From NCBI GenBank assembly GCA_965242965.1, contig OZ251518.1:1792001-1856000 (forward strand): a stretch of 64,000 nt of DNA. Direction: 5' to 3'. A program made the translations under genes and the position numbers. Position 1 is the first letter of the stretch. Every line of letters begins with the position of its first letter. The notes beneath the pieces are model-generated. The model made no database searches and had not been told where the DNA came from. It was given only the letters and a program-made list of their open reading frames with translations. Source of the stretch: Candidatus Poribacteria bacterium. GTDB taxonomy: Bacteria > Poribacteria > WGA-4E > WGA-3G. This document shows positions 4,858 through 62,170 of this stretch, one piece after another.

Positions 4858-4987
4858 CAGAAAATGAAATCGTCCTGCCTTTCAATTTTTTTTCTTGAAA
4901 AATTACGCTGAATTTGGTAACATATTAACTATTATGACACGAATTTTGTAAAAAGTCAAACACCTACTAAAAAGGAGATTGCGGATT

Positions 4988-5797
4988 ATGAAACATCCCG
5001 AATTTTCGCGCTGGCTGATACTCGCGCTGGTGTTCACGCTGGCGGGTCCCGTCGCAGCGCAAAACTATTATCCTGCCACTATCGGCAATACATGGATTTT
5101 AGAGAGTGACACCGGCGAAGACCGGCGCACTTACACCCTCGAGGGACCCGAAACCGTTGATGGCAAAGAACTTACCATCCTTAAAATCGAGACAGTGGGC
5201 CCAGACCTCGACACTCCCGACATCGACAGGTATTTTGTGAGTGTCGGCGACGAAGAAATCGGGTTGCACAAAACCATTTTGGACGAGGGCACCCTCGGCA
5301 TCATAACGGCTGTTTTGGAGCCGGCCGCCACTTTCTTCCGATTACGGTTAGAGGTAGGCGATACGTGGGAAATCTCAGCGGAACTCAAACTAGCTGTCCT
5401 AGGCAGAGAGATCGACTTGGAAAACGCCACCGACGTAGAAGTCGTTGCAATTGAGACGGTAGAAACGCCGGCAGGCACCTTTGAAAACTGCGCCAAGGTT
5501 AAATTGCAGCAGCGCGTCACATCCACGTTCCTGAATCTGGATTCGACCTCGTATCAATGGCTGGCACCCGATGTCGGGCCCGTCAAATATCTCAACAGCG
5601 ATGGGATTGACTATAACCTTGTCAGTTTCAAAATAGGACTGCCTTATGACGTAAACGGTGATGGCACTGTCAACGTCTTGGATCTGGTGTTCGTAGCCTC
5701 GCGCTTCGGGCAGACAGATGCGGCTGCAGACCTGAACGGCGACGGAGTGGTTAACATTCTGGATCTGACGCTCATCGCCGGGAATTTTGGGAATTAA
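4988..5797 (+). CDS. Secreted DUF3108/TapB-like domain protein with C-terminal dockerin
   Basis: Signal peptide; NYYP..GNTW, ETPAGTFENC, WLAPDVGPVK; paired DVNGDGxVNxLDL EF-hand repeats. Confidence 0.85.
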   Translation: MKHPEFSRWLILALVFTLAGPVAAQNYYPATIGNTWILESDTGEDRRTYTLEGPETVDGKELTILKIETVGPDLDTPDIDRYFVSVGDEEIGLHKTILDEGTLGIITAVLEPAATFFRLRLEVGDTWEISAELKLAVLGREIDLENATDVEVVAIETVETPAGTFENCAKVKLQQRVTSTFLNLDSTSYQWLAPDVGPVKYLNSDGIDYNLVSFKIGLPYDVNGDGTVNVLDLVFVASRFGQTDAAADLNGDGVVNILDLTLIAGNFGN

Positions 5798-5840
5798 CCT
5801 TGCCTATCCACACGCAATAGTGTAAAATAAAAAGGACACC

Positions 5841-6110
5841 ATGGTAACATGGAAATTGGCGTTAGCCGTTATCATCATCGCCATTCTGCTGATTCTCACC
5901 GGGATGTGGTTTGGATACCGCTACGTGAGACAGCAAGAGGACATCTCGCCGGAGGCGAGAACGTTCAGTTTACCCGTAATTGCGGGACATATTCGTCCCA
6001 GTTGGGACGCTAACGTCGGGAGAGGTTTGATACCGAGCCCGACATCAATTTCATGGAACGGAAGCAGAACAAGCCCTGTAAGCGCGGTTGCAAACCGCAC
6101 CTACCGGTAG
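5841..6110 (+). CDS. Small hypothetical protein with N-terminal TM helix; its 3' end is formed by a REP
   Basis: AAGGA RBS, hydrophobic N-terminus; GCGCGGTTGCAAACCGCACCTAC near the stop. Confidence 0.5.
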   Translation: MVTWKLALAVIIIAILLILTGMWFGYRYVRQQEDISPEARTFSLPVIAGHIRPSWDANVGRGLIPSPTSISWNGSRTSPVSAVANRTYR

Positions 6111-6159
6111 GGTTTCTGGCATTTGCGTCCGTTCTATTCCAAAAAAGGAGATTTAACTG

Positions 6160-8127: not shown

Positions 8128-8140
8128 GCACCATCACAAT

Positions 8141-8187
8141 AAAACGCTCCGATTCACCGGCACGCCGTTGATTTGGAGCGTTTTTTA
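8141..8187 (+). terminator. Intrinsic terminator
   Basis: AAAACGCTCC...GGAGCGTTTTTT hairpin with U-tract. Confidence 0.7.
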
Positions 8188-8259
8188 TGCTAATGCGGCT
8201 GCAAGGCGGATTTCTATATCCGTCCACACAGTGCAAAAGAAAAATGCAAAGGAAATCAG

Positions 8260-9042
8260 ATGCGCGCAAACACCACCCTTCTGTCACTACTCTGGGGCTT
8301 GCTCACGAGTAGCCTTGCGATGGCAGCATCAAATTATTATCCCATGGATATCGGCAACGTGTGGGTTTTAGAGAGTCAAGATGGCGCGGAACGAAGCACC
8401 TATACCGTTGAAGCAACTGGCGAACCAGTTCGTCTCCTCAAAATGACGACAGAAACGCTAGGGACAGACGTTGTCTCAACAAACCGCGCTTTCGTAGAGG
8501 TTGCCGAAGATGGACTCAAACTGCACAAAATCGTATCAGAGCTCGGTTCAGTGTTCGGCGTAGCAAACGTTGAATTTTCGCCGCCTGCCACCTTTTTCCC
8601 CACGCCGATGAAACTCGGCACTTCGTGGGAACTTGAGGCAACCACAGATGTCACCCTCCTCGGCCCCGTGAAGATCACCACAACCGCTGAAGTTATCGCA
8701 TTAGAAGATGTGGTAACCCCGGCGGGGACGTTCAAACACTGCTTCAAAATTCGGATGCGAAGTAAAACGCGTTCCGCGTTAATAACGAGCCGCTCTACTC
8801 TTTACCAATGGCTGGCACCGGACATCGGTCCCGTGAAACTTGAAACCGATCAGGATATTGTGTTTGAGCTCATCTATTCCAATCTGATTTATGACGTAAC
8901 CGGCGATGGCATTATTAACATTTTGGACCTAACGTTTGTGGCATCGCGCCTCGGACAAACCGCGCCAGAGGCAGATGTCAACGGCGATGGCGTTGTGAAT
9001 ATTTTAGATTTAGTGCTTATCGCGCGGCATGTTGGAAATTAA
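8260..9042 (+). CDS. Secreted DUF3108/TapB-like protein with dockerin (paralog of 4988-5797)
   Basis: Same motifs; DVTGDGIINILDL and DVNGDGVVNILDL. Confidence 0.85.
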   Translation: MRANTTLLSLLWGLLTSSLAMAASNYYPMDIGNVWVLESQDGAERSTYTVEATGEPVRLLKMTTETLGTDVVSTNRAFVEVAEDGLKLHKIVSELGSVFGVANVEFSPPATFFPTPMKLGTSWELEATTDVTLLGPVKITTTAEVIALEDVVTPAGTFKHCFKIRMRSKTRSALITSRSTLYQWLAPDIGPVKLETDQDIVFELIYSNLIYDVTGDGIINILDLTFVASRLGQTAPEADVNGDGVVNILDLVLIARHVGN

Positions 9043-11774: not shown

Positions 11775-13220
11775 TTACGAAATGAATTTCCTGACAGTTC
11801 TGACCAGAGTGCCTTCCGAGAACCATTTCCTCGCAATGCGCCATACACTGCTCGAAAACGTCGGATAGACGTGAATCATCTCGCTTAACTTCCGGAGTGA
11901 AATTCCCTGTTGCATTGCCAGGACGTATTCATGGATAATTTCGCCGGCATTCGCGCTGACGAGGTGAACGCCCAATATTTTTCCGCGCCATCGGCTCGCG
12001 ATGACTTTGGTGAAACCGCGCGTCTCGCCTTCAGCGATTGCCCTATCCACATCTGCCTGCGGCAGCGTGAAGACATCAACATCGCCATGTTTCTCACGCG
12101 CCTCCGCTTCTGTCAAACCGCAACGCGCGACTTCGGGCTCACAGAACGTCGTCCATGGCACGACAGCATAGTCGATCGTTTTGGAGAGTGGGAAGAAGAT
12201 ATTTCGCAAGATGAGTTGCGCTTGAAAATCGGCGACGTGTGTGAAGAGATAATGCCCGATGACATCGCCAGCGGCATAGATATTTTTCACGTTCGTCTGC
12301 AGTTTGTTGTTAACCTCAATGCCGCGTTTGCTGACATTCACGCCGATTTCCTCAAGTCCTAAACCTTCCACATTCGGCGCGCGCCCAGAGGCAATCAAGA
12401 TTTTGTCGAATTGTTCTTCGATGCTGTTTGCGCCGTTGCGGAACGTTACGTGATGCCCATTGATGCGCGTAATCTGTGTATTCAGGCGAATAGTGATTCC
12501 CTCTTCGCGGAGGCAGTCTAGCAGACATGTGGAGACATCGGCATCCTCCTTCGTCAAAATCCGGTCGCTTCGTTGCGCAAGAGTCACTGCCGCGCCGAGT
12601 CGACGAAACGCCTGTCCTAATTCAACTCCGAGCGGTCCCGCGCCAACGACGAGCAGTCGCTTGGGCAATTCTTCCAATTCCCAGAGCGTCTCACTATCAA
12701 GGTAATCGCAGGTTTCTATTCCAGGAATCGACGGCACAGCGGGACGCGAACCGGTGCTGATGACAAACTTTTTGCTGGTGAGGGTTCGCGTTTGTCCGCT
12801 TTCGACTGTCCCTCCCTGGTCTCCCGCGCCATTCACAACGAACGTCTGCGGCGACGTAAAATGCCCACTGCCGAAGATGACATCAACTCCCATCTCCCGA
12901 AACCGCTCAGGGTTGTCGTGTTCCTCCTCAATTTTCTGTTGCGTGCTGCGCACATACGCCATCGCTTTCGGGAAATCGGGCGCGCGGTTGAAAACTTCGC
13001 CTCCAAGGAAGAACCCGTATTTTTCCGCATGCTGAATTTCATTTGCAACCTTCGCGACTTTGAGAAGTGCTTTGGAAGGCACACACCCTGTCCAAAGGCA
13101 ATCGCCGCCGATGCGGTGCTTTTCTATCAACGCGGTTTTTTTTCCTAACTTCGCACCGGCGACAGCAAGCACCAATCCCGCGCTGCCACCGCCGATAATT
13201 GTCAAATCGTATTCTGTCAC
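11775..13220 (-). CDS. Pyridine nucleotide-disulfide oxidoreductase (MerA/Lpd-like)
   Basis: GGGSAG, GGDCLWTGCVPSK, HVYPT; no MerA C-terminal CC pair. Confidence 0.9.
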   Translation of the reverse strand: MTEYDLTIIGGGSAGLVLAVAGAKLGKKTALIEKHRIGGDCLWTGCVPSKALLKVAKVANEIQHAEKYGFFLGGEVFNRAPDFPKAMAYVRSTQQKIEEEHDNPERFREMGVDVIFGSGHFTSPQTFVVNGAGDQGGTVESGQTRTLTSKKFVISTGSRPAVPSIPGIETCDYLDSETLWELEELPKRLLVVGAGPLGVELGQAFRRLGAAVTLAQRSDRILTKEDADVSTCLLDCLREEGITIRLNTQITRINGHHVTFRNGANSIEEQFDKILIASGRAPNVEGLGLEEIGVNVSKRGIEVNNKLQTNVKNIYAAGDVIGHYLFTHVADFQAQLILRNIFFPLSKTIDYAVVPWTTFCEPEVARCGLTEAEAREKHGDVDVFTLPQADVDRAIAEGETRGFTKVIASRWRGKILGVHLVSANAGEIIHEYVLAMQQGISLRKLSEMIHVYPTFSSSVWRIARKWFSEGTLVRTVRKFIS

Positions 13221-17292: not shown

Positions 17293-18195
17293 ATGTTAAA
17301 ACCGTTTCGCTTCATGTTCACGCTCCTATTTGTCTTCAGTTTCAGCGCGACGCTGATGGGCAATGAGTGGGCAAACTACTATTTCCCCGACGCGCTGGAA
17401 AGCTACTGGCACTACGAAGACCAGGATGGCAACGAACTCACGCGCTATGCTGTGGAGCCGGAGGACATTGATGGCGAAACGTATCGTGCCTTCAGCTACG
17501 CCCCGCGACTTGAAGACTGGAAGGATTACCAGTATTACGTGCATCCCTATTTTTACAGCGTCGGTGACGAATGGGTGGCGTTTTTCGTCGGTGAAGATGT
17601 CGAAAACGCAATAAAAGCCACCACAGCGCAACAGTGGGACGAGGTTATCGCCGTAATGCGGCAGCAGATGAATAGCCAACTCCCGCCCGGGGTGAACGTT
17701 GACATAAACGTAACATACGAACTAGAGGTGGAAGCGCAGGACTACTTCTACTTTCTGCCGACTCCCGCAACCTTCAACGAGGAGTGGGAAGCCATGCGGG
17801 CTGACATCAAAATGGACCTCAATATCGGCATCCAGAGCGATATGGCGGGATTTCCAGCCTTCAACCAGAACATCATGATGTATCTCACCGTTGTGGAAAC
17901 AGGGAACGTCGTGGACACTGAAACCGTGGAGACAGAAGCCGGCACCTTTGAGGATTGCCTGAAAATTGAATACCGCGCGGATGCAACGATGGAAACGTCA
18001 CCCCCGATGGAAGACGCAGAATCGCTGTTTTCAAACGCATACGGCGAAACCTTGACGACGCTCTGGTTAGCACCCAACGTCGGTATCGTCAAATTCTCCC
18101 TAGAATCCGAGGCTTTACATTTGGAGAAGACCTTGGAGTTAACGCGGTTTGAGGTGAAATCTGCCGAATCTGGAAGTGACAGCAGCAACCAATAG
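17293..18195 (+). CDS. Secreted acidic DUF3108/TapB-like protein
   Basis: Signal peptide; [28 protein letters not shown]. Confidence 0.85.
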   Translation: MLKPFRFMFTLLFVFSFSATLMGNEWANYYFPDALESYWHYEDQDGNELTRYAVEPEDIDGETYRAFSYAPRLEDWKDYQYYVHPYFYSVGDEWVAFFVGEDVENAIKATTAQQWDEVIAVMRQQMNSQLPPGVNVDINVTYELEVEAQDYFYFLPTPATFNEEWEAMRADIKMDLNIGIQSDMAGFPAFNQNIMMYLTVVETGNVVDTETVETEAGTFEDCLKIEYRADATMETSPPMEDAESLFSNAYGETLTTLWLAPNVGIVKFSLESEALHLEKTLELTRFEVKSAESGSDSSNQ

Positions 18196-18207
18196 GAGGA
18201 ACCCCTC

Positions 18208-19137
18208 ATGCACAAATTGATTTGCCTGCTGCTAAGTGTCTTGCTCATTTTCACCTGCAGCGCGACGCTGATGGGAAATGAGTGGGCGAACTACTATTTT
18301 CCCGATACACTCGGAAACTACTGGGTTTACGAAGACGAAAACGGGGACGAACTCACCCGCTACGCCGTGGAACCCGAAGAGGTTGATGGTGAAACCTATC
18401 GCGCCTTCAACTATGAACCTGCCTTAGAAGATTGGGCAGATTATCTTTATCATGCTGCACCCTATTACTACCTCGTCGGTGACGAGTGGGTTGCCGCCTT
18501 GGCCGGCGAATACGTCAAAAACGCATTCACGGCACGGATAACCGAAGAATTGGAAACACTCCGCGCGATGGGCGAACAAGAGATGGCGCAACAAAGCGAC
18601 CTGCCCGGCGTTCACATCTCGCTGCGTTATGATGTCAGCGTTGAGGCACCAGACTACTTCTATCTGCTCCCGACACCCGCCACCTTTGACGAAGAATGGG
18701 AGGCAATGCAGATAAATGTCGAAATTACCTTGGGGGTTGACGTAGAGGGAGATCCTTCTGTGTTTCGTGAGGAGACACCAGATCTCAAACTTTATTTTAC
18801 TATTGTTGAAACAGGGAACGTCACCGAAACCGAAACTGTGGAAACGGACGCAGGCACGTTTGAGGACTGTCTGAAAATCGAATACCGCACCAAAACGACT
18901 GTCACTGCCTCGGAACCGATGGAAGGCGGTCCGCCGCCAGTCCCCGGGGAATCCTTCACCACGATTTGGTTGGCACCGAACGTTGGCATTGTGAAGTTCG
19001 CGCAGGAATCTCAGGCAGTTGTGTTAACAATGATAGGACCGGTAGAAATTCAGGCACCTGTCACTGAGAGAAGCCTGGAATTAACGCAGTATGAAATCAA
19101 ACCGCCTGAGGCAGGAGAGACTTCGAGTCCTGAATAA
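18208..19137 (+). CDS. Secreted acidic DUF3108/TapB-like protein (tandem paralog)
   Basis: High similarity to 17293-18195. Confidence 0.85.
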
Positions 19138-23458: not shown

Positions 23459-24556
23459 ATGTTCTATCCCGCGTTCCTCAACCTCCAGGACCGAAAATGC
23501 CTCGTTGTCGGAGGCGGCACTGTCGCCGAACGCAAAGTCGTTTCGCTGCTCCTCAGCGGCGGCGAAGTTACGGTGATTAGCCCCGAGGCAACCGAACTGC
23601 TCAAGTTCCTCGCGCACACAGGGCAAATAGTCTTGCACAACCGGCGATTCGCAACCGGTGATGCATCCGGCTACTTTCTCGTCTGTGCTGCCACCGATGA
23701 GTCGGCGATGAACACCGCCATTTTCACGGAGGCGCACGAAGCAAATCGGATTCGCTTAGTCAACGTCGTTGACGTTATCCCGCAATGCACGTTCGCCGCT
23801 GCATCCATCGTGACAGATGGCGAGCTCACGCTCAGCATCTCCACCAGCGGCAAGAGCCCTGCGACGAGCCGCCGCATTCGCGAGTTCCTTGAGGCGAAAC
23901 TCGGGGCAAACTCGCTCTACACGCTTGGGTATCAGAACGGAAAACCTGAGCGCATTCAGAACCAACGGCTTCCCTATCCGGTTTATCTGCTCGTGGAAAA
24001 TCGCCGGTGCGCTGTCTTGTATCGCGAGAAAACGCCTGAAATCAAAAGTCGTATCTCGCTGTTACGCCAATGCGGTGCGGACGTTGTGGAGAATCCGAAA
24101 AACATTGCGGATGCGTTTCTCGTCATCGCCGAGTTCGGGAATCCGCCGCATCCCCTCACGGAGTCCATCGCACAATCGGATGCCGGCACATTCCAAACCC
24201 CGCGGCTCATCACCGATAACAACCTGATTATCGGCATCTCTTCTCGCAAAGGCGAGGACACCGGTGACGCGGCGAGCCTGCAGCAAGCACTCGCAACACA
24301 GTTTGAAAATAACGGCTACGGCGCGTTTATTGAATTTCTCGGAACGATTCGTCCCGATGTCCTGAAAGCGTTTCAGACTTCAAAAGCACGCGCGGATTTT
24401 TTTGAGACACTGATTAACTATCAAACTGAGGCACAACCGTGCTGTTTAAGACTCACCGATGCGACGTGTTCCGCCGAGTGCCTCTTCAATTGGATTCGGC
24501 GCGGTGAAGTGGAACGCGCCAAGCATCTCGTATCAACCTTACTCACCATTCGGTAG
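23459..24556 (+). CDS. Precorrin-2 dehydrogenase/sirohydrochlorin ferrochelatase (SirC/CysG-N/Met8-like), extended
   Basis: YPAFLNL...LVVGGGTVAERK, NVVD, ISTSGKSP. Confidence 0.85.
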   Translation: MFYPAFLNLQDRKCLVVGGGTVAERKVVSLLLSGGEVTVISPEATELLKFLAHTGQIVLHNRRFATGDASGYFLVCAATDESAMNTAIFTEAHEANRIRLVNVVDVIPQCTFAAASIVTDGELTLSISTSGKSPATSRRIREFLEAKLGANSLYTLGYQNGKPERIQNQRLPYPVYLLVENRRCAVLYREKTPEIKSRISLLRQCGADVVENPKNIADAFLVIAEFGNPPHPLTESIAQSDAGTFQTPRLITDNNLIIGISSRKGEDTGDAASLQQALATQFENNGYGAFIEFLGTIRPDVLKAFQTSKARADFFETLINYQTEAQPCCLRLTDATCSAECLFNWIRRGEVERAKHLVSTLLTIR

Positions 24557-24593
24557 GCGCGGTTGAAAAGCGCGCCTCGGCAAACGTGGATTT

Positions 24594-25511: not shown

Positions 25512-26912
25512 ATGGAAAACTTCATGGAAACATACCCCGGGCCGCAGCACAACACATATCTTGACGCTGAATCCGTGCCCACATGCGATATCCAGTGTGA
25601 ATCCCGCATGCAACATACGAACCAGCTGGTTTCTGTCGGAACGAGCCATCACGTCGCGCCGATTGCGTTCCGGGAAAAATTGGCATTTTCCGAGGAACAA
25701 CTCGTCCACTCGCTGCAACATCTATGTGAATCGCAGCAGGTGCAGGAGGCCGTCATCCTCTCCACCTGCAACCGGGTAGAAATTTACGCAGTGCCAAACG
25801 CGCGAAGCAATGCTGAGGCATCTGTTATCCATCTGCTTGAATTCCTCGCGCGCTACCATCGTGTCGGCATGGAGGCTCTCAAGAAGTTCAGTTATAGCCA
25901 CGACGGACTTGAGGCAATCCAACACCTCTTCCGGGTTACCGCCAGTCTTGATTCTATGGTAATCGGGGAGGCGCAAATCTTGGGGCAGGTGAAATCTGCT
26001 TATGAAGATTCTCGCGCCGCTGGTGGTGCGGGCACTATCCTCAATCGTCTTTTTACTAAAGCGTTCAGCGTCGGTAAACGCATCCGCACTGAGACGACTA
26101 TCGCTACCGGTGCTGTATCTATCAGCTACGCCGCCGTTGAACTCGCCAAGAAAATTTTTAACACTTTAGAGGGAAAAACCGTCGCGATTATCGGCGCGGG
26201 CGAAATGAGCGAATTAACGGCGAAGCACCTCGTCGCCAACGGCGTTTCTAACGTTATCGTGGCGAACCGAACCTACGAACGCGCTGTCAGAATCGCCGAA
26301 AAATTCAGGGGGACACCCATCGCTTACCAGAGCAACCTCGGCTTTCTTATCGATGCCGACATTGTCATCAGTTCCACCGATGCACCGCAGTATCTCATCA
26401 CCCCGCGTCCCCTCGCCGATGTCATGCGGAAACGGAAGCACCGCTACATGTTCCTCATTGACATCGCGGTGCCGCGCGACATCGATGCTGATGTCAATCA
26501 CATCGACGGCGTGTTCCTCTATAATATCGATGACCTCGAGGCAGTTGTCGCTTCCAACCTCAAGGAGCGGCGACACGAAGCCACACGCGCAGAACAGATT
26601 GTCGCCGAAGAAGCGAAACAGTTCCATGCCCAATTGCAAATCTTTGAAGTGAGCCCGACGATTAAGGCACTGCACCAACAGTTCCAACAAATCGTTGAGG
26701 CAGAGCGCACCGCCTGTTTTGACAAGGCAAACCTGTCAGACAAACAGCAAGCCGCCGTCGCCTCCATGACGCAGGCGATTGTCAAAAAACTTCTCCATCA
26801 CCCCGTCAAGAATTTACGGCAAGCCGTGAACGATGACGAGTCAGACCACGGGCAATACGTCCATGCCTTGCAGGCCCTGTTCGCGTTAGATGCAAATGTA
26901 GAGGAAAAATGA
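25512..26912 (+). CDS. hemA: Glutamyl-tRNA reductase (true start may be downstream, e.g. 25608)
   Basis: STCNRVE, GEAQILGQVK, GAGEM, DIAVPRD. Confidence 0.97.
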   Translation: MENFMETYPGPQHNTYLDAESVPTCDIQCESRMQHTNQLVSVGTSHHVAPIAFREKLAFSEEQLVHSLQHLCESQQVQEAVILSTCNRVEIYAVPNARSNAEASVIHLLEFLARYHRVGMEALKKFSYSHDGLEAIQHLFRVTASLDSMVIGEAQILGQVKSAYEDSRAAGGAGTILNRLFTKAFSVGKRIRTETTIATGAVSISYAAVELAKKIFNTLEGKTVAIIGAGEMSELTAKHLVANGVSNVIVANRTYERAVRIAEKFRGTPIAYQSNLGFLIDADIVISSTDAPQYLITPRPLADVMRKRKHRYMFLIDIAVPRDIDADVNHIDGVFLYNIDDLEAVVASNLKERRHEATRAEQIVAEEAKQFHAQLQIFEVSPTIKALHQQFQQIVEAERTACFDKANLSDKQQAAVASMTQAIVKKLLHHPVKNLRQAVNDDESDHGQYVHALQALFALDANVEEK

Positions 26913-27883
26913 ATCCATCACTTACCATCGGCACGCGAGGCAGCCAACTCGCACTCTGGCAGGCACGCTTTGTCCAAAAACAGGTGAACGGGCACTTTCC
27001 AGAGGTGACGGTATCCCTCAAAATCATCAAAACCACCGGCGATGCTGTCCAGAACCGTTCACTGCTTGGACTCGGAAAAGGCGTGTTTACCAAGGAGATC
27101 GAAGCCGCGCTGCTAACAGGTGAAATCGATCTGGCTGTGCATAGCCTCAAAGATTTGCCTACGGCACTTCCCGATGGGCTCCACATCACCGCAATTCCGG
27201 CGCGGGAAGATGCACGCGATGTGCTGATTACGTGCTCAGGGATGACATTGACGCAACTGCCAAAGAATGCCACAATCGGCACGACGAGCCCCCGGCGGAA
27301 GGCGCAACTCCTCCTCGCGCGGCCAGACTTGCGCGTTGTTGATGTGCGCGGTAATATTGATACGCGCTTACGCAAACTGCACGAAACCGATTTAGATGGA
27401 ATCATCCTCGCCGCCGCTGGGATTAAACGCCTTTATGATTATAGTCCGGGCTCGCCTGAGCCCAAAAAGGACAGATTGCCCTATCTGCCCGATAACGCGC
27501 TCCAGTTTTTTGATACCGAAACCATGGTGCCGGCTGTCGGACAAGGCGCGCTTGCCATTGAAGCGCGCGCAGATGATAACACCGTTGCCAAACTCATCGT
27601 GCCGCTTAACGATGCACGCGCAGCAGCGGAAGTCACCGCCGAGAGAACCGTTTTGGAGCGTCTCGGTGGCGGATGTCACGTGCCTATCGGCGCGAACGCG
27701 ATGCATCGCAACGATGAACTCTACCTCATCGCAGCTGTCTGTCATCCCGAAGGCACGTCGCGCATCGTGGAGAGAGTAAAAGGCGCGCCGGACAACGCGC
27801 AAGGCTTAGGGGAGGTTGTTGCGGAAAAACTTCTTCGCAGTGGGGCAGCAGAACTTCTCATATCAAATTCCCTTGGCACGTAG
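26909..27883 (+). CDS. hemC: Hydroxymethylbilane synthase with a REP-derived insertion
   Basis: GTRGSQLALWQ, VHSLKDLP, RGNIDTRL, GGGC. Confidence 0.97.
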   Translation: MNPSLTIGTRGSQLALWQARFVQKQVNGHFPEVTVSLKIIKTTGDAVQNRSLLGLGKGVFTKEIEAALLTGEIDLAVHSLKDLPTALPDGLHITAIPAREDARDVLITCSGMTLTQLPKNATIGTTSPRRKAQLLLARPDLRVVDVRGNIDTRLRKLHETDLDGIILAAAGIKRLYDYSPGSPEPKKDRLPYLPDNALQFFDTETMVPAVGQGALAIEARADDNTVAKLIVPLNDARAAAEVTAERTVLERLGGGCHVPIGANAMHRNDELYLIAAVCHPEGTSRIVERVKGAPDNAQGLGEVVAEKLLRSGAAELLISNSLGT

Positions 27884-27992
27884 CGCGTGGGCCTGTCGGC
27901 ACGTAGCGCGTGGGCCTGTCCCCCGCGATCGTGGCCTACAAGCCCACGCCCGACGAAGAAAGCCCGATTGAATGCTGAAACTTCATCCGATT

Positions 27993-30355: not shown

Positions 30356-31966
30356 CTACTTCCGAATCACCATCTTGCGCGTTGCGGAGAAATCACCCGC
30401 GGTCAACGTATAGAAATACACGCCGCTTGCAACGGGTTCTCCTTGTGCATTGCGGCCGTTCCAATAGGCGGCGCGAGAACGGTTTTGATAGATGCCCGCC
30501 GGGACCTGACCGAGTTTCAGCTCGCGGACGAGTTTTCCGTCTGCCGAATAGATGGAGACCTGGACTTCGGCTGCTTCTGCCAACTGATACGGTATCCATG
30601 TCTCCGGGTTAAACGGGTTTGGATAATTCGCAAGCAGGACAGTCTCTTTCGGGACCGGGAGGTCTCTCCTATTGAGTGCAGTCAGCAGCCGTTCCAGCGC
30701 GGCGATGCTGGCCGGGTCTGCGTTTGCTTCCTTCGCATCGCGAATCCACCGCTGCACATCCGCTGCCTGTAGATCCCCGGTCTCAATGACTTCGCCTTGT
30801 AGGAGAGACCTCCCGGTCTCGATTGCAGGCGCGGCCGCCGCATCCACCGCTTCTATCACGGCGAGGATGTCATCAACATCAACCTTCCCATCGCCGTTGA
30901 CATCCGCCTTGCGGTTTGCACCGGCACCGACAGTTTTGCCGTAGTTCCTTGCCACCTCTACGAGGTCATTGACGTTGACTTTACCATTCCCTGTCACATC
31001 CACCGTGAGCAACCGATGCAAAAGGATGGTTCAACTACCTCTACCGGGATTACTGGCGAGAATCTGCCCATTCGGCGAAAATGCTACGGGGCGGTTTCCC
31101 GTGAGCGCGGCTTTGAGGGCACCGGTGCTCGGATTCCAAAGGCGGGTGGTGCCGCTCCCAGTCCCACTCGCCAGGGTCTGCCCGTTCGGGTGGAACACTA
31201 ACGAAACAACATTGCCTGTATGTCCCCGCAGCACGCGCAGGGTGACGTGCGTATCCGGATCCCAGAGACGGGCGGTGTCGTCGTAACTCCCACTCGCCAG
31301 GATGCGACCATCCGGACTCCACGCCACGCGGACGGCTGCCTCCGTATGCCCCCGCAGCACGGCGAAGTTGATGCCGTTGTTCGGATTCCACAACCGCACT
31401 GTACCATCATGACTCCCACTCGCCAGCGTCCTACCATCCGGACTCCACGCAACCGAGGAGACCCAAGACGTATGCCCCCGCAGCGTGCGCACATGCCGCA
31501 GGTTGTTTCTGTCACCCACATCCCAGATGCGGATGGTATTGTCAGCACTCGCACTCGCCAGCAGATAACTGTTCGGCTTGAAGGCGAGTCTCCCGACTCT
31601 CTCTGTATGCCCCACCACTTTGCCGCGCCAGTCGCCATCCTCGCTATAGCGCATCCGAATGTCAGTATTCCCAGGCCCACCATAGGCGATGAAGTGGGGG
31701 TCATGCGAAGGGAGCGCAACGGCCCAGACATTATCGCCGACATCCTGCTCCCAGCGTTGTGTGCCGGTGGTGACATCCCAGGCGCGGAGGGTGTTGTCAA
31801 TACTCCCACTGATAAGCGTCCCGTTACCCTTGAAGGCTATCCCAGTGACAGAACTCGTGTGTCCAGTCAGGGTGTCGGTGTGGACGTATTGTTGTGCGGT
31901 GGCGGTCGTCACTGCCATCGCGGCTATTAACGCTAGCGTTAAGGTTAAAAGCGTTAATGTTTTCAT
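30356..31966 (-). pseudogene. Secreted WD40 + dockerin + FlgD-like CTD gene interrupted by an in-frame TGA at 31031-31033 (pseudogene or read-through)
   Basis: Signal peptide from ATG 31966; about 7 WD40 repeats; ...LASNPGRGS*TILLHRLLTVDVTGNG... continues in the same frame. Confidence 0.75.
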
Positions 31967-43328: not shown

Positions 43329-43697
43329 ATGCCCAGCAAACAGCCCAAAACCCTCAAGAAGCATGACACTGCCTTCCAGATTGTATGGAAGGACGCGCAC
43401 GTCAGTTGGTATCCGTATCCTTACCTGCGGCAGATGTGCCCGTGCGCCGAATGCGCTATCATCAGGCATAGGGGACAAGATATCCATTCCCTCTTTTCGC
43501 CGCAAGGTGATGGCGATGTAACGCTAATTGAGGTGAGAGCCGATATTCAGCCGTTGGATATCCAACTCGTCGGCCGCTATGCGCTTCAATTCAGTTGGAA
43601 CGATGGACACGCTTCCGGCATTTATCCGTTTGACGTGCTGCGCGAGATTTGTCCGTGTCCCGACTGCGCCCCTCAGGCATCATCAAACTCATCGTAG
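43329..43697 (+). CDS. DUF971 (GBBH-N-like) Zn-binding protein
   Basis: LRQMCPCAEC, VGRYAL..W.DGH.SGIY. Confidence 0.9.
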   Translation: MPSKQPKTLKKHDTAFQIVWKDAHVSWYPYPYLRQMCPCAECAIIRHRGQDIHSLFSPQGDGDVTLIEVRADIQPLDIQLVGRYALQFSWNDGHASGIYPFDVLREICPCPDCAPQASSNSS

Positions 43698-43740
43698 CGC
43701 GGGGGCCTGTCCCCTGTCCTGCCTAAGGAAAATCCGACAA

Positions 43741-50939: not shown

Positions 50940-52418
50940 TCACGCCCAGCTGGCATCAACATAAGCCCTGAGATGTTTCAACGCGCTGCCATTATCAATC
51001 ACAGTTTGAGCACGTTTGACAGCACGGTGCGGTTCCGGGCAAATCCCCAACAGATAATCTACCATCGCCGCGTTTAGGACAATTCTGTCATAGAGATGCC
51101 CTTTCTGTCCGGATAGCGCGGCGATGCCAGCATCGGCGAACGCCTGCGCACTGACGCTTTCGGGACGCGGGCTCCGGGCATAGTCAAACCCGTAGTCAGA
51201 AGGATTAATATCCACGGCAAAATCTTCGCGGTGTCCGTTAAGGCATCGGAAACCTTGCGAATAATTAATCGCCATTCTATCAACGGTAGACGGTTTTCCG
51301 AGGCGGAGCGCGTAATGACTCGTGCCTTCCTCACCCTTAACAGCAACTGCGCCGTCAAACCCGCGTTCCCACGCCAATTGCAGGAGCGGTTTCTCATAAC
51401 CGATATGATAATAGCCTAGCACCATGTAGTTTGCCGTAGCGCGAGTGCCTGTCCTTCGCGTGTCTTCTCCTGCAGCGGAGAAAAACTGCTGTGCTTTTTC
51501 CGTAGCCGCCCACGGTGGACGTTTCTTAATATGCACCCGCAGTTCCCGCAAAGCGTAGGCACCCGGCGAATACTCGCGCTGACTAATATACCCGAACCCG
51601 ACCATTTTGTCGGCGATGCGTTCCGCTGTTTGTTCAAGGGATAGCGTCGTATTCGCGCCGAGCGCGTTCAAAATCGCCTCTTCGGTAACGCCGTTTTTCG
51701 GTGGCATCGCATCGACACTATGCAGCACCGAAGGCTCACCGAGTGCGGCGCGGACAGCTGCCACGAAGAGCGTTGGGCGAAAGTAGCGCGTCGCGCCATC
51801 GTAAGGTTGCCCGAAATGGGTGAGTGAATTGACAGCGATAGGCCGCACATCTTCCGGTGCGAAAAAGGCATCAAGGTAGCCGCGCACCTCCTCGTAGGTC
51901 TCGCGGTTCATCCGCTGCCCGATAAGCGCAGCGGCTTTGAGTGCCGGTTTGACAGCATCGCTGAGGAGCGCGGTGCACATCCGCCGCGTCTCGGCGTAAT
52001 CCAGATGTTTCGCACGTAAAATCTTCTCTAGCGCGGCGACGACAATTGCCTCCGTTGCATTGGCAGGGACGTATCCGCGCCCAGGGGTCATCAGGTAGCG
52101 AATCTCCGCAGGCAACTTCTCTTCAAGCGCAGACTGGTGGTGCCTGAACGCCTCACGTTCCTGCGGACTCCACTGCGTCGCTTCAGGGAAATAGTTGCGG
52201 AGCGTCATGGCAGAAAAAAACGCGCCCATCTGTGCCGCCGAGGCAGTCTCCTCTCGCGGCAGTTCGCCCGACAGCGATTTGAGGATAATTTTCAATACGG
52301 ATGCAGGTTGCGGCCCATCTGGGTTTCCTAACGGGCGCGTCTGATGCGGGCCTGTGCAAACCCTTGCCTGCGCCTCAAGGAGTTCAGGATTAGGGCCTGG
52401 ATAATCAAATGTGTTCAT
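50940..52418 (-). CDS. Anthranilate phosphoribosyltransferase-like protein (TrpD2/YbiB-like)
   Basis: AQMGAF, PYDG, PPKNGVT, KGEEG. Confidence 0.8.
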   Translation of the reverse strand: MNTFDYPGPNPELLEAQARVCTGPHQTRPLGNPDGPQPASVLKIILKSLSGELPREETASAAQMGAFFSAMTLRNYFPEATQWSPQEREAFRHHQSALEEKLPAEIRYLMTPGRGYVPANATEAIVVAALEKILRAKHLDYAETRRMCTALLSDAVKPALKAAALIGQRMNRETYEEVRGYLDAFFAPEDVRPIAVNSLTHFGQPYDGATRYFRPTLFVAAVRAALGEPSVLHSVDAMPPKNGVTEEAILNALGANTTLSLEQTAERIADKMVGFGYISQREYSPGAYALRELRVHIKKRPPWAATEKAQQFFSAAGEDTRRTGTRATANYMVLGYYHIGYEKPLLQLAWERGFDGAVAVKGEEGTSHYALRLGKPSTVDRMAINYSQGFRCLNGHREDFAVDINPSDYGFDYARSPRPESVSAQAFADAGIAALSGQKGHLYDRIVLNAAMVDYLLGICPEPHRAVKRAQTVIDNGSALKHLRAYVDASWA

Positions 52419-52554: not shown

Positions 52555-53532
52555 TTGGAATTTTTTCTGATGAAAATGGAAGCGGATTGCAACAAACCTT
52601 ATATCATGCAAACTCACATCTATGCGCGCGGCGCGAAGGAAACCTGTCCCTCGCGTGCCTTCAGTTACACGTTAGGCATCATCATTTTTATCCTCGCTGT
52701 CGGCGGGTGTGATGAACCAACTCCCGTCACCATCACGCCGGAAGAGACAGACAGCATCGTCCTGCGCGACTACATACTGGCAGCGGATGAGACATGGGAT
52801 GCGGAGAAAACCTACACCGTGCATGGCGAATTGGAGATTCCGCCGGACATCACCTTGCGCATCCCGCCAGAGACTACCGTGAGATTCGGACGCGACGCGC
52901 TGGTGAAGGTGAGAGGCATCCTGAAAGTCGGAGTCGATGCAGAACGAGCTGGGGCAGCCACACCGGTGAAATTCACTTCGGATATCCCAGGTCCGCAGCG
53001 CGGCGATTGGCAGGGAATCCTCTTCGATCACACGCATGGACTTGACAGTTTCGTCAGAGGTGCGCAGATTGAATACGCAACCGTCGCCGTGGATATCAAG
53101 ACGACCTCGCCGACAATCGCAGATTGCACGTTCCGCCTGAACGATGTCGCCATCGCTTTAGATGGCAGCAACGCGGTTATCCAGCATAACGCATTCGTGG
53201 ATAACAACATCGGCATCCGCACTATTGGGCGGCAAACGCGCCCGAAAATTGAGCGAAACAGCATCACCCGCAACGAGATAGGCATTCACTGCGAAAATGT
53301 GCAGTCAATTATCCAATATAATAACCTGGGAGGCAACATCCGCGCCCTCAAGTTATGGGTAAAGTTCGACCTGTATGCGCCTGACAATTGGTGGGGCACA
53401 CTGGATGCCGAGTCCATAGACACCGCGATAGTCGATGCCGCTGATCCGGAATTGCTGCATAAACAGGTAGGCACCGTCACCTACGAACCGATTGCCGATG
53501 CACCGATTCCAGATGCCGGCCCCAATCGGTGA
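52555..53532 (+). CDS. Right-handed beta-helix lipoprotein (start uncertain)
   Basis: Lipobox-like VGGC; GDWQGI; N..GI repeats; NWWG. Confidence 0.85.
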   Translation: MEFFLMKMEADCNKPYIMQTHIYARGAKETCPSRAFSYTLGIIIFILAVGGCDEPTPVTITPEETDSIVLRDYILAADETWDAEKTYTVHGELEIPPDITLRIPPETTVRFGRDALVKVRGILKVGVDAERAGAATPVKFTSDIPGPQRGDWQGILFDHTHGLDSFVRGAQIEYATVAVDIKTTSPTIADCTFRLNDVAIALDGSNAVIQHNAFVDNNIGIRTIGRQTRPKIERNSITRNEIGIHCENVQSIIQYNNLGGNIRALKLWVKFDLYAPDNWWGTLDAESIDTAIVDAADPELLHKQVGTVTYEPIADAPIPDAGPNR

Positions 53533-54096: not shown

Positions 54097-55317
54097 ATGC
54101 TCACTATTCTGAACATCTCACAAAACCACTACATCCGCGGCGGTTCTGACCGGTATTTTTTCACGATGGGCGAGGTGTTGCAAAAACAGGGACACCGCGT
54201 GATTCCGTTCACCGCGGCGAGCCCGAAAAACGAACCGACAGAATGGGAACGCTATTTTCCACGCGGTGCCGATTTTGAGCATCCCAGCGCGCTTGACTTA
54301 GGGCGGTTTCTATACTCACGCGATGCTGTCCAATCAATGCGCCGGTTATTACGGGACATAGATGACTCCGCGCCAAAAACTGTAGACATCGCGCATTTCC
54401 ACATTTACTACGGCAAGTTGACTGCCTCCATCTTGGGGGTGCTGAAACAAGCAGGCATTCCGCTGATTCAAACGTTGCACGAGTATAAACTGACCTGTCC
54501 TGTCTACAGTCATCTGTCAAACGATCAGATTTGCGAGGCGTGTGCGGGGAAACATTTTTGGCGCGCGCTCCCGAAGCGGTGCAACCGAGGTTCGCTTGCC
54601 CGCACTGCCTTGAGCGTCACCGAATCTTACGTCTCGCGCAGCCTCGGCGCGGTTGACAAATTCGACCATTTTATCTCTGTCTCGCATTTCTTAAGGAAAA
54701 AGATGGTTGAACACGGTATCCCCGAAACGAAGATTTCGACGGTTCATAACTTCGTTGATGTGTCGGATTTCACGCCAAATTTCGCCGAGGGAGAGTATCT
54801 GCTCTATTTCGGCAGGGTGCATCAGAGTAAGGGGATTTTCACCTTGATAGAGGCGGCGGCTCCGCTGAAACAGGTGCCGCTCATCATCGTCGGTGATGGC
54901 GAAGCACTGCCCGAAGTCCGGCGACAGGTGGAACAGGCTAACTGCGAACATATCCGACTTGTCGGGTTCAAACAAGGCGATGAACTTCGCGAACTGATTG
55001 CGGGAAGCATCTGCACGCTGTTGCCCTCGGAATGGTATGAAAACTGCCCGATGTCCGTTTTAGAATCCTACGCGTATGGCAAACCTGTCATCGGTGCGGA
55101 TATCGGCGGAATTCCAGAACTCATCGCCGATGGCGTAGATGGCTTTCTCGTTCCCTCCGGTGGGACAGAAGCATTACGCGAGAAACTGCTTTGGATGTAT
55201 GAACACAAAGCGGAGGCGGCAGAGATGGGACGTATCGGCCGCCACAAAATGGAAACTCAATTTAACGCGGACATTCATTATGAAAACATTATGAATGTCT
55301 ATCAAAATTTCTTGTAG
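54097..55317 (+). CDS. Glycosyltransferase family 4
   Basis: TLHEYKLTCP, PSEWYENCPMSVLES, GGIPE. Confidence 0.95.
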   Translation: MLTILNISQNHYIRGGSDRYFFTMGEVLQKQGHRVIPFTAASPKNEPTEWERYFPRGADFEHPSALDLGRFLYSRDAVQSMRRLLRDIDDSAPKTVDIAHFHIYYGKLTASILGVLKQAGIPLIQTLHEYKLTCPVYSHLSNDQICEACAGKHFWRALPKRCNRGSLARTALSVTESYVSRSLGAVDKFDHFISVSHFLRKKMVEHGIPETKISTVHNFVDVSDFTPNFAEGEYLLYFGRVHQSKGIFTLIEAAAPLKQVPLIIVGDGEALPEVRRQVEQANCEHIRLVGFKQGDELRELIAGSICTLLPSEWYENCPMSVLESYAYGKPVIGADIGGIPELIADGVDGFLVPSGGTEALREKLLWMYEHKAEAAEMGRIGRHKMETQFNADIHYENIMNVYQNFL

Positions 55318-55371
55318 GCGTGCCCTCCTGGTCCCAAGCGACAAACCCGAAAAAGTAGACGCTTCTCAATC

Positions 55372-58183: not shown

Positions 58184-59224
58184 TTGCCAGGCCAGCGTCA
58201 AACAACTGCTCGGAACTACAAATATCTCATTGTCGGCGGCACCACAAAAGCGGCGACGACATCGCTGTTCGCTTACCTCGCCGCGCATCCGGCGATTTGC
58301 GCTGCGACTTACAAGGAGACTCGGTTTTTCCTCGACAAAACGTATCCGCTCCCGTCAAAATACCGATACAGCGGAAACGTAGAGGAATACAATCTGCTTT
58401 TTCCGGAGGAGAACGATGGAGATTCGCGCATCCGGCTTGAGTCAACACCGGACTATCTCTATTGCCCGAACGCGCGTGAGCGAATCGCGGAATTTCTGCC
58501 GCACGCCAAACTCGTCTTCAGTCTCCGCGAACCGGTCTCGCGTCTGATTTCGTGGTATCGGTTCGCCAAACAGAACGGCACGTTGCCGCAAACGCTTAGT
58601 TTTGATGGATACGTAGAGATGTTGTTTAAGGAAATTCGCGACCGGGGCACGGCGAGGGACAGGCCCTCGCCCTACGATAGCGCGGGGGCCTGTCCCCCGC
58701 AATCTGTCAACACTAGGAACACACCTCCGCCGGCTACGACAGAACAATATTTGCAAACACTTCAGCAGGGATGCTATACTGTCTATTTGAAGCCCTATTT
58801 TGAGAGATTCGGTGTGGCGCGCATCCACATCCTCTTCTACGAAGACATCGCTGAAAATCCGCGAACTGTTCTGGCAAACCTCTGCGAATTCGCCAGCATT
58901 GATGCCGATTTTTACGAGGATTACACCTTTCAGGTGACAAACCGCACGGAAACGATGAAAAATTCGGAGTTGCATCGGAAATATCGGAACTTTCGGTTTC
59001 AACTTCGGCAGTGGACACATAACAAACCGATAATTCACAATCCGTTGCGAGCGGTGCGAAAAGCCATTGAGCCGCTCTATCTCCGTTTAAACACGCATGC
59101 GGCGGAGCAGGTGGACGTTTCAGAAGAGACGCGCCAACGTTTAGTTGACTATTACCGAGAGGATGTGCAGGCACTCGCCGCACTGATAGGACAACCGGCA
59201 CCGTGGCATCAGTTTTGTCGGTAG
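58184..59224 (+). CDS. Sulfotransferase with an in-frame REP insertion
   Basis: 5'-PSB GTTKAATTS, KETRFF, 3'-PB LREPVSRLIS. Confidence 0.92.
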   Translation: MPGQRQTTARNYKYLIVGGTTKAATTSLFAYLAAHPAICAATYKETRFFLDKTYPLPSKYRYSGNVEEYNLLFPEENDGDSRIRLESTPDYLYCPNARERIAEFLPHAKLVFSLREPVSRLISWYRFAKQNGTLPQTLSFDGYVEMLFKEIRDRGTARDRPSPYDSAGACPPQSVNTRNTPPPATTEQYLQTLQQGCYTVYLKPYFERFGVARIHILFYEDIAENPRTVLANLCEFASIDADFYEDYTFQVTNRTETMKNSELHRKYRNFRFQLRQWTHNKPIIHNPLRAVRKAIEPLYLRLNTHAAEQVDVSEETRQRLVDYYREDVQALAALIGQPAPWHQFCR

Positions 59225-59449: not shown

Positions 59450-59554
59450 ACTTACATCCGTAAGTCCATCGAAAACGGATGCATTGACAGAGATACGGAG
59501 AAAGCCGTGATTGCACAAGAATCCTTATTGAACGCATTAAAAATAAAAGAAAAT

Positions 59555-61174
59555 ATGAAAACGTTTGGCACCCGAGGCCCGGTAACCCCAGAGAAGCACT
59601 ACGTTGTGCCGCGCACGGCTGAGCTCGCCGATTTCCTCCGCCGCGTCACAGAGGGCCGCTATCTCGTGATTTTCGCGCCGCGGCAGACAGGAAAGACGAC
59701 TTTCTTTCGCAGTGCCTTGCAGGTGCTCGCCGCTGATGTCCCCGACTATTTCCCTATTGAACTGAATTTTGAGGAGTATGTCGACATTGCGCCTGCGGAA
59801 TTCTACGAATCCGTTCACGAAGACGTTCTCACGCAAATTGAGCGCGTCTTCCAGAAAGGGGGTGAAACACCTCCCGCGGCTTTAAGCCCACTTTTAGCCC
59901 GGCAGGGCCGAAAGGTAACCAATAATATCTCACTGCGGAAGTTCTTTGAGGAATTCGCGCAGCTGCTTGACTATCCGCGGGTTGTCCTTATCATTGATGA
60001 ATTTGATAACATTCCGCGGGCGGCTGTGCGCGGGTTTCTTCACACGCTCCGGCGCATTTATCACGAGGCCGATGAAAAACGCCGATGCATCCATAGCGTC
60101 GGGATTGTCGGCGTGAAGAATCTCACGCAGCTGGATTACGACAGGACTGTCTCCCCGTTTAATATCCAAGACGAGTTCCACTTGCCGAACTTCACCTTCG
60201 CCCAAGTGCAGGAGCTGCTTGGACAGTATACGGCAGAAGTCGGCCAAGCCTTCACACCGGAAGTTATTGAGCGGCTCCACAGCCAGACTTCCGGGCAGCC
60301 TGTTCTCGTGAACCGATTGGCACTGCTTCTCACCGAGGAGATGGACATACCGCAAGACAAGTCCATTGCCATGGAACACTTTTTCACTGCACACAAGCGA
60401 ATCCTTGGCGAACGGAATGTCAACATTCAGCATCTCACCACGAATGTCCGCCGTAACCCGCGATTTGAACAACTCTTAATGCGTATAGCGTCTCAGGATG
60501 AAGGTATTGAGTTCAACCTGCATGATGAAATCATCAGTGAACTCGCCACTTACGGCGTTATCAAGGAAGGTGAAGATCAGATGTGCGAGATTAGCAATCC
60601 GATTTATCTTCACTGCATCTTGCAGACATTCAAGCCGACGATTAACGGGTTAGAGGCAGAGTATTACCCTCAAGACACCGGCAACGGCGTTCAGGATTAC
60701 CTTACCGCCGCTGGACAAATTGACATGCTGCGGCTCTTGAGCAACTTCCGCGATTTTATTGCGCGCGCCGGCTTTCGCATCCTCCAAGTGCCGCAAAAAC
60801 CGAGAGAATACATCGGACAACACCTGCTGCTCGCCTATCTTGATAACTTTGTGCTTCGGGTACATGGAACGATGAACCTTGAAGTGCAAACGGGCCGTGG
60901 ACGAATCGATCTTCTAATCAACCACGGACAGCGAAAATACATCGTGGAAACGAAGATTTGGCAGGGAGAGAAATCTTATCGGAACGGTATGCAGCAATTG
61001 GCAGCCTACCTCAAGCTGGAGAAGGCCGAGGAAGGATACTACGTCGTCTTCGACCACCGTCCGAAGCCGCAGCCACGAATCGATACAGAAACGGTGGACG
61101 GTGTGACGATTCGGAGTTACGTCATTCCTGTCGTGCAAGAACCTCCTTCTTCAGCGGTTCCACCGAAAACGTAA
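59555..61174 (+). CDS. AAA-like ATPase with a C-terminal PD-(D/E)XK domain
   Basis: APRQTGKTT, LIIDEFD, SPFNI; E...GRIDL..IVETK. Confidence 0.9.
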   Translation: MKTFGTRGPVTPEKHYVVPRTAELADFLRRVTEGRYLVIFAPRQTGKTTFFRSALQVLAADVPDYFPIELNFEEYVDIAPAEFYESVHEDVLTQIERVFQKGGETPPAALSPLLARQGRKVTNNISLRKFFEEFAQLLDYPRVVLIIDEFDNIPRAAVRGFLHTLRRIYHEADEKRRCIHSVGIVGVKNLTQLDYDRTVSPFNIQDEFHLPNFTFAQVQELLGQYTAEVGQAFTPEVIERLHSQTSGQPVLVNRLALLLTEEMDIPQDKSIAMEHFFTAHKRILGERNVNIQHLTTNVRRNPRFEQLLMRIASQDEGIEFNLHDEIISELATYGVIKEGEDQMCEISNPIYLHCILQTFKPTINGLEAEYYPQDTGNGVQDYLTAAGQIDMLRLLSNFRDFIARAGFRILQVPQKPREYIGQHLLLAYLDNFVLRVHGTMNLEVQTGRGRIDLLINHGQRKYIVETKIWQGEKSYRNGMQQLAAYLKLEKAEEGYYVVFDHRPKPQPRIDTETVDGVTIRSYVIPVVQEPPSSAVPPKT

Positions 61175-61216
61175 GTTTTGACAACGTCAAAACGACCTGG
61201 GCAGGGGAGTCCTTTT

Positions 61217-62170
61217 GTGAGACAACCTCAAACAACCGCTAGGAAATACGAAAAAATTCAACTCATGATTGTCGGTGTGCAGAAAGCCGGCACGTCTTCG
61301 CTGCTCCGGTATTTAGCGCAGCATCCCGACATCGCCACGCATGCACAGCCGGAGATGACGTTCTTCCTCCAAGACAGGGAATATACGCGAGGCTATGAAT
61401 GGGCATTTGATAAATACTTCGCTAGAACGTTGTTACCAGAGCAACTCCCTCACAAACGTAGCGCGAGTGCCTGTTCCTCGCCATGCCGACTCATAGCGAA
61501 AAACGTGATGGTGATGCACTCGCCGGAAATCATGCAACGGATTTATGAGCATAATCCGGACATCCACCTCGTCATTCTGTTACGGGAGCCGGTGGCGCGG
61601 GCGTATTCGGCATATTGGTGGGCGCGACGCAGAGGTTGGGAAACGCTTGAAACCTTTGAGGCAGCACTCGCCGCTGAGGAAGCACGGATAGCCCAAGAAG
61701 GCTGGTTTAAATGGCGGCAGTGCGCCTATCGCCACAACAGCACTTACTACCCGCACGTCAAAAATGTGCTAGAACAGTTTGGACACGAACGGGTTCACAT
61801 CCTCTTAACCGAGGCGTTAAAGGACGACGCGCAATCGGTATGCCAAGGGCTCTTTCGCAACATCGGAGTCAACGCCGATTTCACGCCTGTCATCGGGCAA
61901 CGGCATAATACGGGCACCACGATGCCGCGTTCCGAGAAGTTCGGCTTCCTATTCACGCAATTTATGGCATCGCACAACCTGTTGCGCCGCGCAATTCGCA
62001 AATTGGTGCCGGATGCCACCGCCTATAAACTGCGAAAAGCGGTGATGAATTGGAACGAAAAATCCTTCACACCGCCGCCGATCTCGTCGCAAACGCAGGC
62101 GGAATTGGCGGCATATTTTGAGCCGTTTAATCAACAACTCAAGGCATTGTTGGAACGGGAACTCTGGTAA
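61217..62170 (+). CDS. Sulfotransferase with an in-frame REP insertion
   Basis: GVQKAGTSS, EMTFF, LREPVARAYS; GTG start after GGGAG. Confidence 0.92.
   Translation: MRQPQTTARKYEKIQLMIVGVQKAGTSSLLRYLAQHPDIATHAQPEMTFFLQDREYTRGYEWAFDKYFARTLLPEQLPHKRSASACSSPCRLIAKNVMVMHSPEIMQRIYEHNPDIHLVILLREPVARAYSAYWWARRRGWETLETFEAALAAEEARIAQEGWFKWRQCAYRHNSTYYPHVKNVLEQFGHERVHILLTEALKDDAQSVCQGLFRNIGVNADFTPVIGQRHNTGTTMPRSEKFGFLFTQFMASHNLLRRAIRKLVPDATAYKLRKAVMNWNEKSFTPPPISSQTQAELAAYFEPFNQQLKALLERELW

Follow-up and report, generated by a model that had tools for sequence, protein, structure and literature searches.

The 64-kb window analysed here (contig C1, positions 1792001-1856000) comes from a Candidatus Poribacteria genome, G000, which comprises 5.70 Mb in two contigs; G001 and G002 are sister genomes of the same genus. 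An intact sulfotransferase gene (Pfam PF00685; sulfotransferase 1) lies on the plus strand at 58184-59224 and contains two REP palindromes arranged head to head. One, an exact copy of REP family 0 on the minus strand (58651-58675), is read as TARDRPSPY and is common to both sister genomes. The other (58677-58701, plus strand), a family-0 copy with two mismatches and an ATAG tag, is read as DSAGACPPQ and is found in G002, not G001. The loop carrying the pair is 38 residues long, against 6-10 residues in 11 of 22 genomes from outside the genus; because the other 11 have loops of 14-45 residues, the site is variable in length anyway. In an AlphaFold model of modest quality (mean pLDDT 68.5) the insert is coil between two helices, and no solved sulfotransferase structure aligns across it. 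Sulfotransferase 2 (61178-62170) bears a family-0 REP with three mismatches (61458-61482, plus strand), read as RSASACSSP and likewise common to G001 and G002, in a loop of 23 residues compared with 8 in 7 of 13 outside genomes. Both sulfotransferase inserts are common within the genus, occupy loops of variable length across the family and read family 0 in its rarest, cysteine-coding frame. Between the two genes lies an AAA_35 ATPase gene (59507-61174), which is probably a later insertion; several relatives have the sulfotransferases directly adjacent.

A 16-residue insert is present in HemC (gene 26909-27883; insert 27440-27487, plus strand). It begins with a degenerate GTAGTTCGGG-type REP (27441-27465), which makes up its first half; the remainder is a less common palindrome whose family is uncertain. 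These residues are missing from 28 of 29 relatives, including G002 at 87% identity, and at this loop the HemC of G001 carries different repeats, which make it 27 residues longer. Altered flanks are common to G000 and G001 and the REP content differs, a pattern that one old insertion with later turnover would fit as well as independent insertion in the two genomes. Relative to structure 5h6o the gap falls directly after the AAGxKRL helix, and the AlphaFold model has coil at the insert, with pLDDT below 50 at residues 178-188. The initial annotation had proposed mapping the inserts onto predicted structures; those of HemC and the sulfotransferases do fall in coil, where the low pLDDT is weak evidence for a loop, since it also follows from missing alignment rows.

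The TrpD-like gene (50940-52418) contains a family-0 REP with four mismatches (51436-51460, plus strand), read on the minus strand as TRRTGTRAT for a net gain of 11 residues. The insert occurs in all three same-genus genomes and in none of 21 others, and the loop is short in 79 of 80 additional loci. In an FAD oxidoreductase (11775-13220, minus strand), a degenerate GTAGGCGCGG-type REP (12982-13001, plus strand) reads GGEVFNRA and adds a net two residues throughout the genus; this segment is REP-like, with 173 genome matches at up to four mismatches against 24 for the reversed control. A second insert in the same gene (12810-12830, minus strand; seven residues, GAGDQGG), which the initial annotation had missed, is decayed in G000, a recognisable REP in G001 and absent in G002. 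Around residues 250-260, the G001 and G002 oxidoreductases (L119 and L120) carry a family-0 REP insert of 20-23 residues that G000 lacks, although G000 and G001 have other inserts in common; either clean loss in G000 or gene-level discordance could account for this pattern.

A dockerin/CTD gene holds two family-1 REPs. The first (30799-30823, plus strand, one mismatch), read as IETGRSLL, adds seven residues relative to five close paralogs; the second (30648-30672, minus strand, four mismatches), read as RRDLPVP, replaces native residues with a gain of one and is shared with one paralog. This host cannot be called intact, because an in-frame TGA (31031-31033, minus strand) separates the WD40 part of the WD40-dockerin-FlgD/CTD protein; its five closest paralogs read through as single proteins of 528-552 residues. 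The fresh insert adjoins an older look-alike stretch, IETGSLQ, which is present in paralogs and suggests that old REP remnants may attract or template new copies. At the N-terminus of a beta-helix protein, a family-0 variant (52631-52655, plus strand) precedes a hydrophobic stretch and an LAVGG-C motif, so placed that it likely forms the N-region of a signal peptide, judging from a lipoprotein signal read by eye. Since other genera have N-termini of equal length, this REP is no demonstrated indel. The small ORF at 5841-6110 ends in a REP (6077-6110) that encodes its C-terminus, with the following GTAG contributing the TAG stop codon. For the eight cases named in the initial annotation, every repeat and peptide was recovered in its place; two of them are terminal and one host is split. 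Five of the six interior hosts in the window are intact.

In four window genes the reading frame closes where a REP begins (24553-24577, 27880-27904, 43694-43718 and 55314-55338), with the tag supplying or overlapping the stop, an arrangement seen in 163 overlaps genome-wide. The window also contains five DUF3108-like paralogs in two clusters (4979-9042 and 17293-19137), of which some have a dockerin or FlgD tail.

The most frequent words in this genome are hairpins with a GTAG tag and a length of about 25 nt. Family 0 has the form GTAG-GGCGAGGG-CCTGT-CCCTCGCC, and two of its variants occur exactly 1,552 and 1,423 times. A library of 38 representatives matched 11,565 copies on contig C1 at up to five mismatches and 11,032 at up to four, occupying about 4.9% of the contig; the scan covered C1 and left out the 38-kb contig C2. 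Most copies (10,875 of 11,565, 94%) are intergenic, and pairs and clusters are present, as in the GTAG-tagged REP superfamily. The repeats resemble that superfamily in structure too. The terminal GTAG with which the commonest 25-mers start lies outside the stem, and the tag is kept in 4,350 of 4,649 intergenic and 110 of 127 coding copies of family 0; two minor families start with ATAG. Stems measure 6-8 bp in families 0, 1, 2, 4, 7 and 17, and loops, read off the sequence, 4-5 nt, within the superfamily's ranges (stem 5-13 bp, loop 2-20 nt, total 20-40 nt). Rfam gave no match in the 64-kb window. The family-0 pattern matches 4,245 times in G000, 1,006 in G001, 572 in G002, twice in G004 and never in the remaining 37 genomes of the 41 searched; as it is near-absent outside the three same-genus genomes, the outgroups are effectively free of family 0. 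A family-free count of GTAG hairpins was near its control in samples of G007, G004, G009 and G012. Near-identical DNA is contained in four runs from one study labelled sponge metagenome (shares 0.39-0.41). A rare palindrome family, GTAGTCATTGACAACGTCAATGAC, with 32 copies and read as VVIDNVNDG, lies within several genes of G000 and G002, for example gene 812 (1130195-1134019 of C1), 2056, 2452 (EF-G) and 2669 (LeuRS) of G000; by impression, its coding share looks high.

We then placed the REPs relative to genes called with a purpose-built hexamer model rather than a standard annotator (4,077 genes, 80% coding). Defining as interior a REP at least 40 codons from both gene ends, we counted 363 interior copies, 152 near an end and 175 across a start or stop. 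The interior copies represent 199 sites in 174 of the 4,077 genes (4.3%), essential genes among them; this is a lower bound, as decayed copies such as that of the oxidoreductase escape the scan. At least four families and several reading frames are used in coding copies across the genome, as had been noted for the window. The estimate of about eight affected genes in 64 kb was too high: the strict scan finds five, a number on the high side of the genome mean of 1.97 REP-bearing genes per 64 kb (Poisson p=0.05), or six with the oxidoreductase. Chance origin is excluded, since codon-shuffled and synonymous-shuffled genes (4.53 Mb each) gave no match at up to four mismatches and 3-4 at five, against the 363 real copies. 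Density is 120-fold lower in coding sequence (80 per Mb) than between genes (9,619 per Mb).

Comparison with relatives identifies coding copies, lying wholly within an ORF and in frame, as insertions absent from orthologs. REP-containing extra segments (up to seven mismatches) were found in 8 of 178 gene pairs with G007, in agreement with the genome count. When G000 is compared with G002, 45 segments are longer in G000, 16 of them with a REP (up to five mismatches), and 82 are longer in G002, 19 of them with one; random coding windows give a background of 8 in 1,500. Of the 127 indels with a length of at least five residues that separate two sister species, no fewer than 35 include a REP. A 13-mer repeat score for indels was dropped from the counts after showing a background of 8.5%.

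Ortholog alignment, the check suggested with the initial annotation, confirmed the peptides as indels in HemC, the TrpD-like protein, both sulfotransferases and all six core genes aligned elsewhere in the genome (ClpB, LeuRS, LigA, DapF, TsaB and UvrA); the six were picked for their core look, and 12 other fetched loci were left unaligned. The claim that many intact genes carry such repeats accordingly stands for HemC, the TrpD-like gene and the two sulfotransferases, whose REP loops are absent in relatives, and fails for the dockerin host. ClpB has arrays of different length in three sister genomes, and LeuRS has one insert unique to G000, one shared and one unique to G002. The DapF insert is also found in G004, a member of another genus, is duplicated in G000, and its site is empty in G009. 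UvrA has 71 extra residues in G000 only, which are missing from the G002 protein (95-96% identical). Metagenome contigs from four runs enter this array at both ends, while none of the 32 listed pieces spans it and one run differs inside, in a region where repeats confound mapping. No target-site duplication was evident by eye at UvrA or LeuRS, where divergence is too high to judge. The UvrA insert speaks for recent activity, in line with the description of the source as ongoing; most of the window cases, by contrast, are old and genus-shared.

Members of other genera have in-frame inserts of their own, in LeuRS (L313), DapF (L326) and sulfotransferase 1 (L058) of G004, TsaB (L335) of G007 and sulfotransferase 2 (L100) of G009. 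Some are GTAG-led and one, of about 90 residues, is built from duplications. The insertion process may thus run across the family with different repeats. The DapF of G007 (L328-L331) appears in three pieces with stops within matches, either a broken gene or an assembly error.

Several REPs are present at 86 of the 199 coding sites, with a maximum of eight. Neighbours of one family and orientation lie a whole number of codons apart in 107 of 109 coding pairs, whereas between genes the spacing is divisible by three in 574 of 1,478 pairs; array growth by tandem duplication, with selection retaining the in-frame products, would give this pattern. Loop flipping (CCTGT to ACAGG) was considered as a coding-specific mechanism and rejected: it occurs in 3 of 21 shared REPs, but is not enriched in G000 (3 of 113 coding against 205 of 4,450 intergenic copies, p=0.49). 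A search for the mobilising enzyme identified one intact REP-associated tyrosine transposase (RAYT; C1 3147.5-3148.0 kb; NF047646, 120.6 bits, cut-off 80) flanked by 17 GTAGTTCGGG-type REPs, as a cognate enzyme of the GTAGTTCGGG-type families would be. Families 0 and 1 supply most coding inserts, and no RAYT flanked by either was found among one NF047646 and two PF01797 matches. Of 41 genomes, 22 encode a RAYT that scores above the cut-off; none was found in G001 (86% complete) despite its high REP load. As the only RAYT is GTAGTTCGGG-flanked and G001 shows none, these searches do not point to an enzyme for families 0 and 1. An IS200/IS605-like element (L296 4158-5712; C1 ~3,124,150-3,125,700) encodes a Y1 transposase disrupted by two in-frame stops, which adjoins an intact 408-residue ORF, TnpB-like by eye.

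Selection was assessed separately on hosts, peptides and reading frame. Outside the insert, host genes have a median dN/dS of 0.115 (31 genes) against 0.105 for 456 others (p=0.13); the premise that hosts are not decaying is thereby borne out, the split dockerin gene excepted. Among 868 ortholog loci, drawn from partial samples of six genomes with window genes counted once per genome, we found 16 reading-frame breaks and none caused by a REP, a result that applies to loci with at least 70% coverage, decayed pseudogenes escaping the test. Two of the 16 lie near a REP; one is a natural query end and the other an alignment past the true stop. Coding REPs differ from their family representatives by 736 changes in total, 247 of them synonymous (33.6%), and matched intergenic copies read in the same frames give 33.6 ± 1.5% (263 of 268 distinct coding copies had controls). 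Because the synonymous share equals the intergenic control, no amino-acid constraint on the inserts is detected. Selection acts on the host and the frame, and the inserted peptide drifts neutrally, so the 'peptide creation' suggested earlier holds only in a neutral sense.

No coding copy uses the frame in which the tag becomes a TAG codon. The five open frames are used unevenly, by 32, 5, 7, 21 and 14 genes for family 0 (p=3e-6) and 39, 20, 15, 27 and 13 for family 1 (p=6e-4), counts that paralogous genes make less than fully independent. VARGPVPR is read in 32 genes and SAGACPP in 5, both frames being equally stop-free (p=7e-6); the latter, the rarest family-0 frame, codes cysteine and is stop-free in 0.94 of cases against 0.93 for the commonest (9-nt flanks). 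This bias is compatible with selection against cysteine and also with insertion sites being preferred according to codon position. Hydropathy and disorder show no correlation with frame use over 10 frames (rho -0.03 and 0.15) and were rejected as its cause.

The reading we favour, with a probability of roughly 0.85, is that rare REP insertions persist only in frame in tolerant loops and then grow by in-frame tandem duplication, as intragenic GTAG REPs. A large REP population has expanded in this Poribacteria genus, presumably via a REP-associated tyrosine transposase, and its members occasionally land in genes, from which purifying selection would remove nearly all copies. The survivors keep frame, avoid the TAG frame and sit in tolerant surface loops or linkers, a position that is presumed for most sites. 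A first insert would create a tolerant, repeat-bearing spot able to grow or shrink by in-frame tandem duplication or deletion and to gain further REPs, while the coded peptides, presumably translated with their hosts, drift without detectable amino-acid constraint. Several points count against this account: the only RAYT is not flanked by the families that supply most coding inserts, several sites are replacements (+1 or +2 residues) that need an extra deletion step, pure neutrality does not predict the uneven frame use, and one of the hosts in the window is split. It is a more doubtful proposition that REPs contribute more new protein sequence in the genus than any other single source, with selection on the surviving frame, for example against the cysteine in SAGACPP. 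If true, these genomes would be a natural linker-scanning experiment in which permissive sites in core enzymes are mapped, and the first filter on de novo peptides would be visible.

Some REP peptides or mRNA hairpins could instead be functional and kept by selection. Several inserts do persist across all three genomes of the genus, that of DapF is also in G004, and the biased frame use points the same way. A raw dN/dS of 0.47 within the 21 shared REPs would also suggest constraint; however, this value is biased by the identity filter and protein-guided alignment, and it was rejected after the matched intergenic control, in which 168 of 300 draws reach the observed value and no synonymous excess appears. 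Decay has also gone further in coding copies (74 of 363 exact) than in intergenic ones (4,971 of 10,875), and the inserts of ClpB, TsaB and HemC vary freely in length and sequence from one sister species to the next. We consider such domestication unlikely, and very unlikely the view that the REPs mark dying genes, with hosts turning into pseudogenes in a symbiont under relaxed selection. The dockerin/CTD host with its TGA would suit such decay, as would a slightly higher pooled host dN/dS (0.128 against 0.112), but that difference is not significant (p=0.13), the hosts LeuRS, LigA, DapF, TsaB, HemC and ClpB all score above NCBIfam cut-offs, HemC has a single match per genome, and REPs cause none of the breaks in the 868 loci.

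Removal of the REP segment before or during translation, by DNA excision in some members of the population, RNA processing or ribosome hopping, is highly improbable: the inserts are strong hairpins and nothing more direct speaks for it, whereas the spacing in multiples of three and the unused TAG frame are expected only if the segment is translated, and decayed copies that no longer pair are still in frame. There is hardly any chance that the repeats were mis-assembled into genes. The genome is very repeat-rich and no listed contig spans the whole UvrA array, but the same inserts occur at the same codons in G001 and G002 with independent substitutions, and mis-assembly would not respect frame.

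For insertions that persist in frame without constraint on the peptide, the hundreds of copies, the sister genomes with empty sites and the intergenic control address whether inserted peptides act, which work on Rickettsia elements and coding REPs had not settled: judged from sequence, hosts are conserved and peptides drift. The inserts also provide a catalogue of naturally tolerated insertion sites in ClpB, LeuRS, LigA, UvrA and HemC, and REP-coded peptides will mislead Poribacteria annotation through spurious homology and wrongly called start codons.

The initial annotation likened these insertions to Rickettsia palindromic elements (RPEs). The parallel holds for the mode of action, as both are palindromes in frame in likely functional proteins of a host-associated bacterium (PMC3733652, PMC3184786, PMC1166351). 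RPEs differ in being ~105-146 bp long (RPE-1 type; PMC3184786) or CGTC-tagged (RPE-4/6 type; PMC3733652), whereas the Poribacteria units are ~25 nt and GTAG-tagged. In R. felis 85 of 728 RPEs are in ORFs (12%), compared with 3% here, so that only the absolute number is higher in Poribacteria. REPIN-RAYT systems likewise have REP doublets and a single-copy RAYT flanked by REPs, but typically comprise hundreds of copies that are almost only extragenic (Bertels and Rainey, 10.1101/2021.07.10.451892), against ~11,500 here, where the two largest families have no flanked RAYT. The closer precedent is the in-frame GTAG REPs reported in several species, most in Opitutus terrae (Di Nocera, De Gregorio and Rocco 2013, PMC3733652), where we counted 70 inserts in 62 ORFs from supplement 3. 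Those repeats share with ours the GTAG tag, short stems, several families per genome, a mostly intergenic location and TAG as stop; singles, dimers and groups occur in frame within genes, with clusters of up to 82 residues, and the hosts include uvrA, DNA ligase and tRNA synthetases. Caution about N-terminal cases is voiced there, as here. A search judged on titles and the starts of abstracts, with most subscription journals outside its coverage, found no paper on REPs in the phylum Poribacteria among the matches listed. By its sequence features, the Poribacteria case is assigned to the intragenic GTAG REP class, sharing all testable features except a cognate transposase. The phenomenon itself is published; what is new is the lineage and its families, the larger count (363 copies at 199 sites in 174 genes, gene ends excluded), and the neutrality test and frame bias, selection on peptides and frame use being absent from the part of PMC3733652 consulted.
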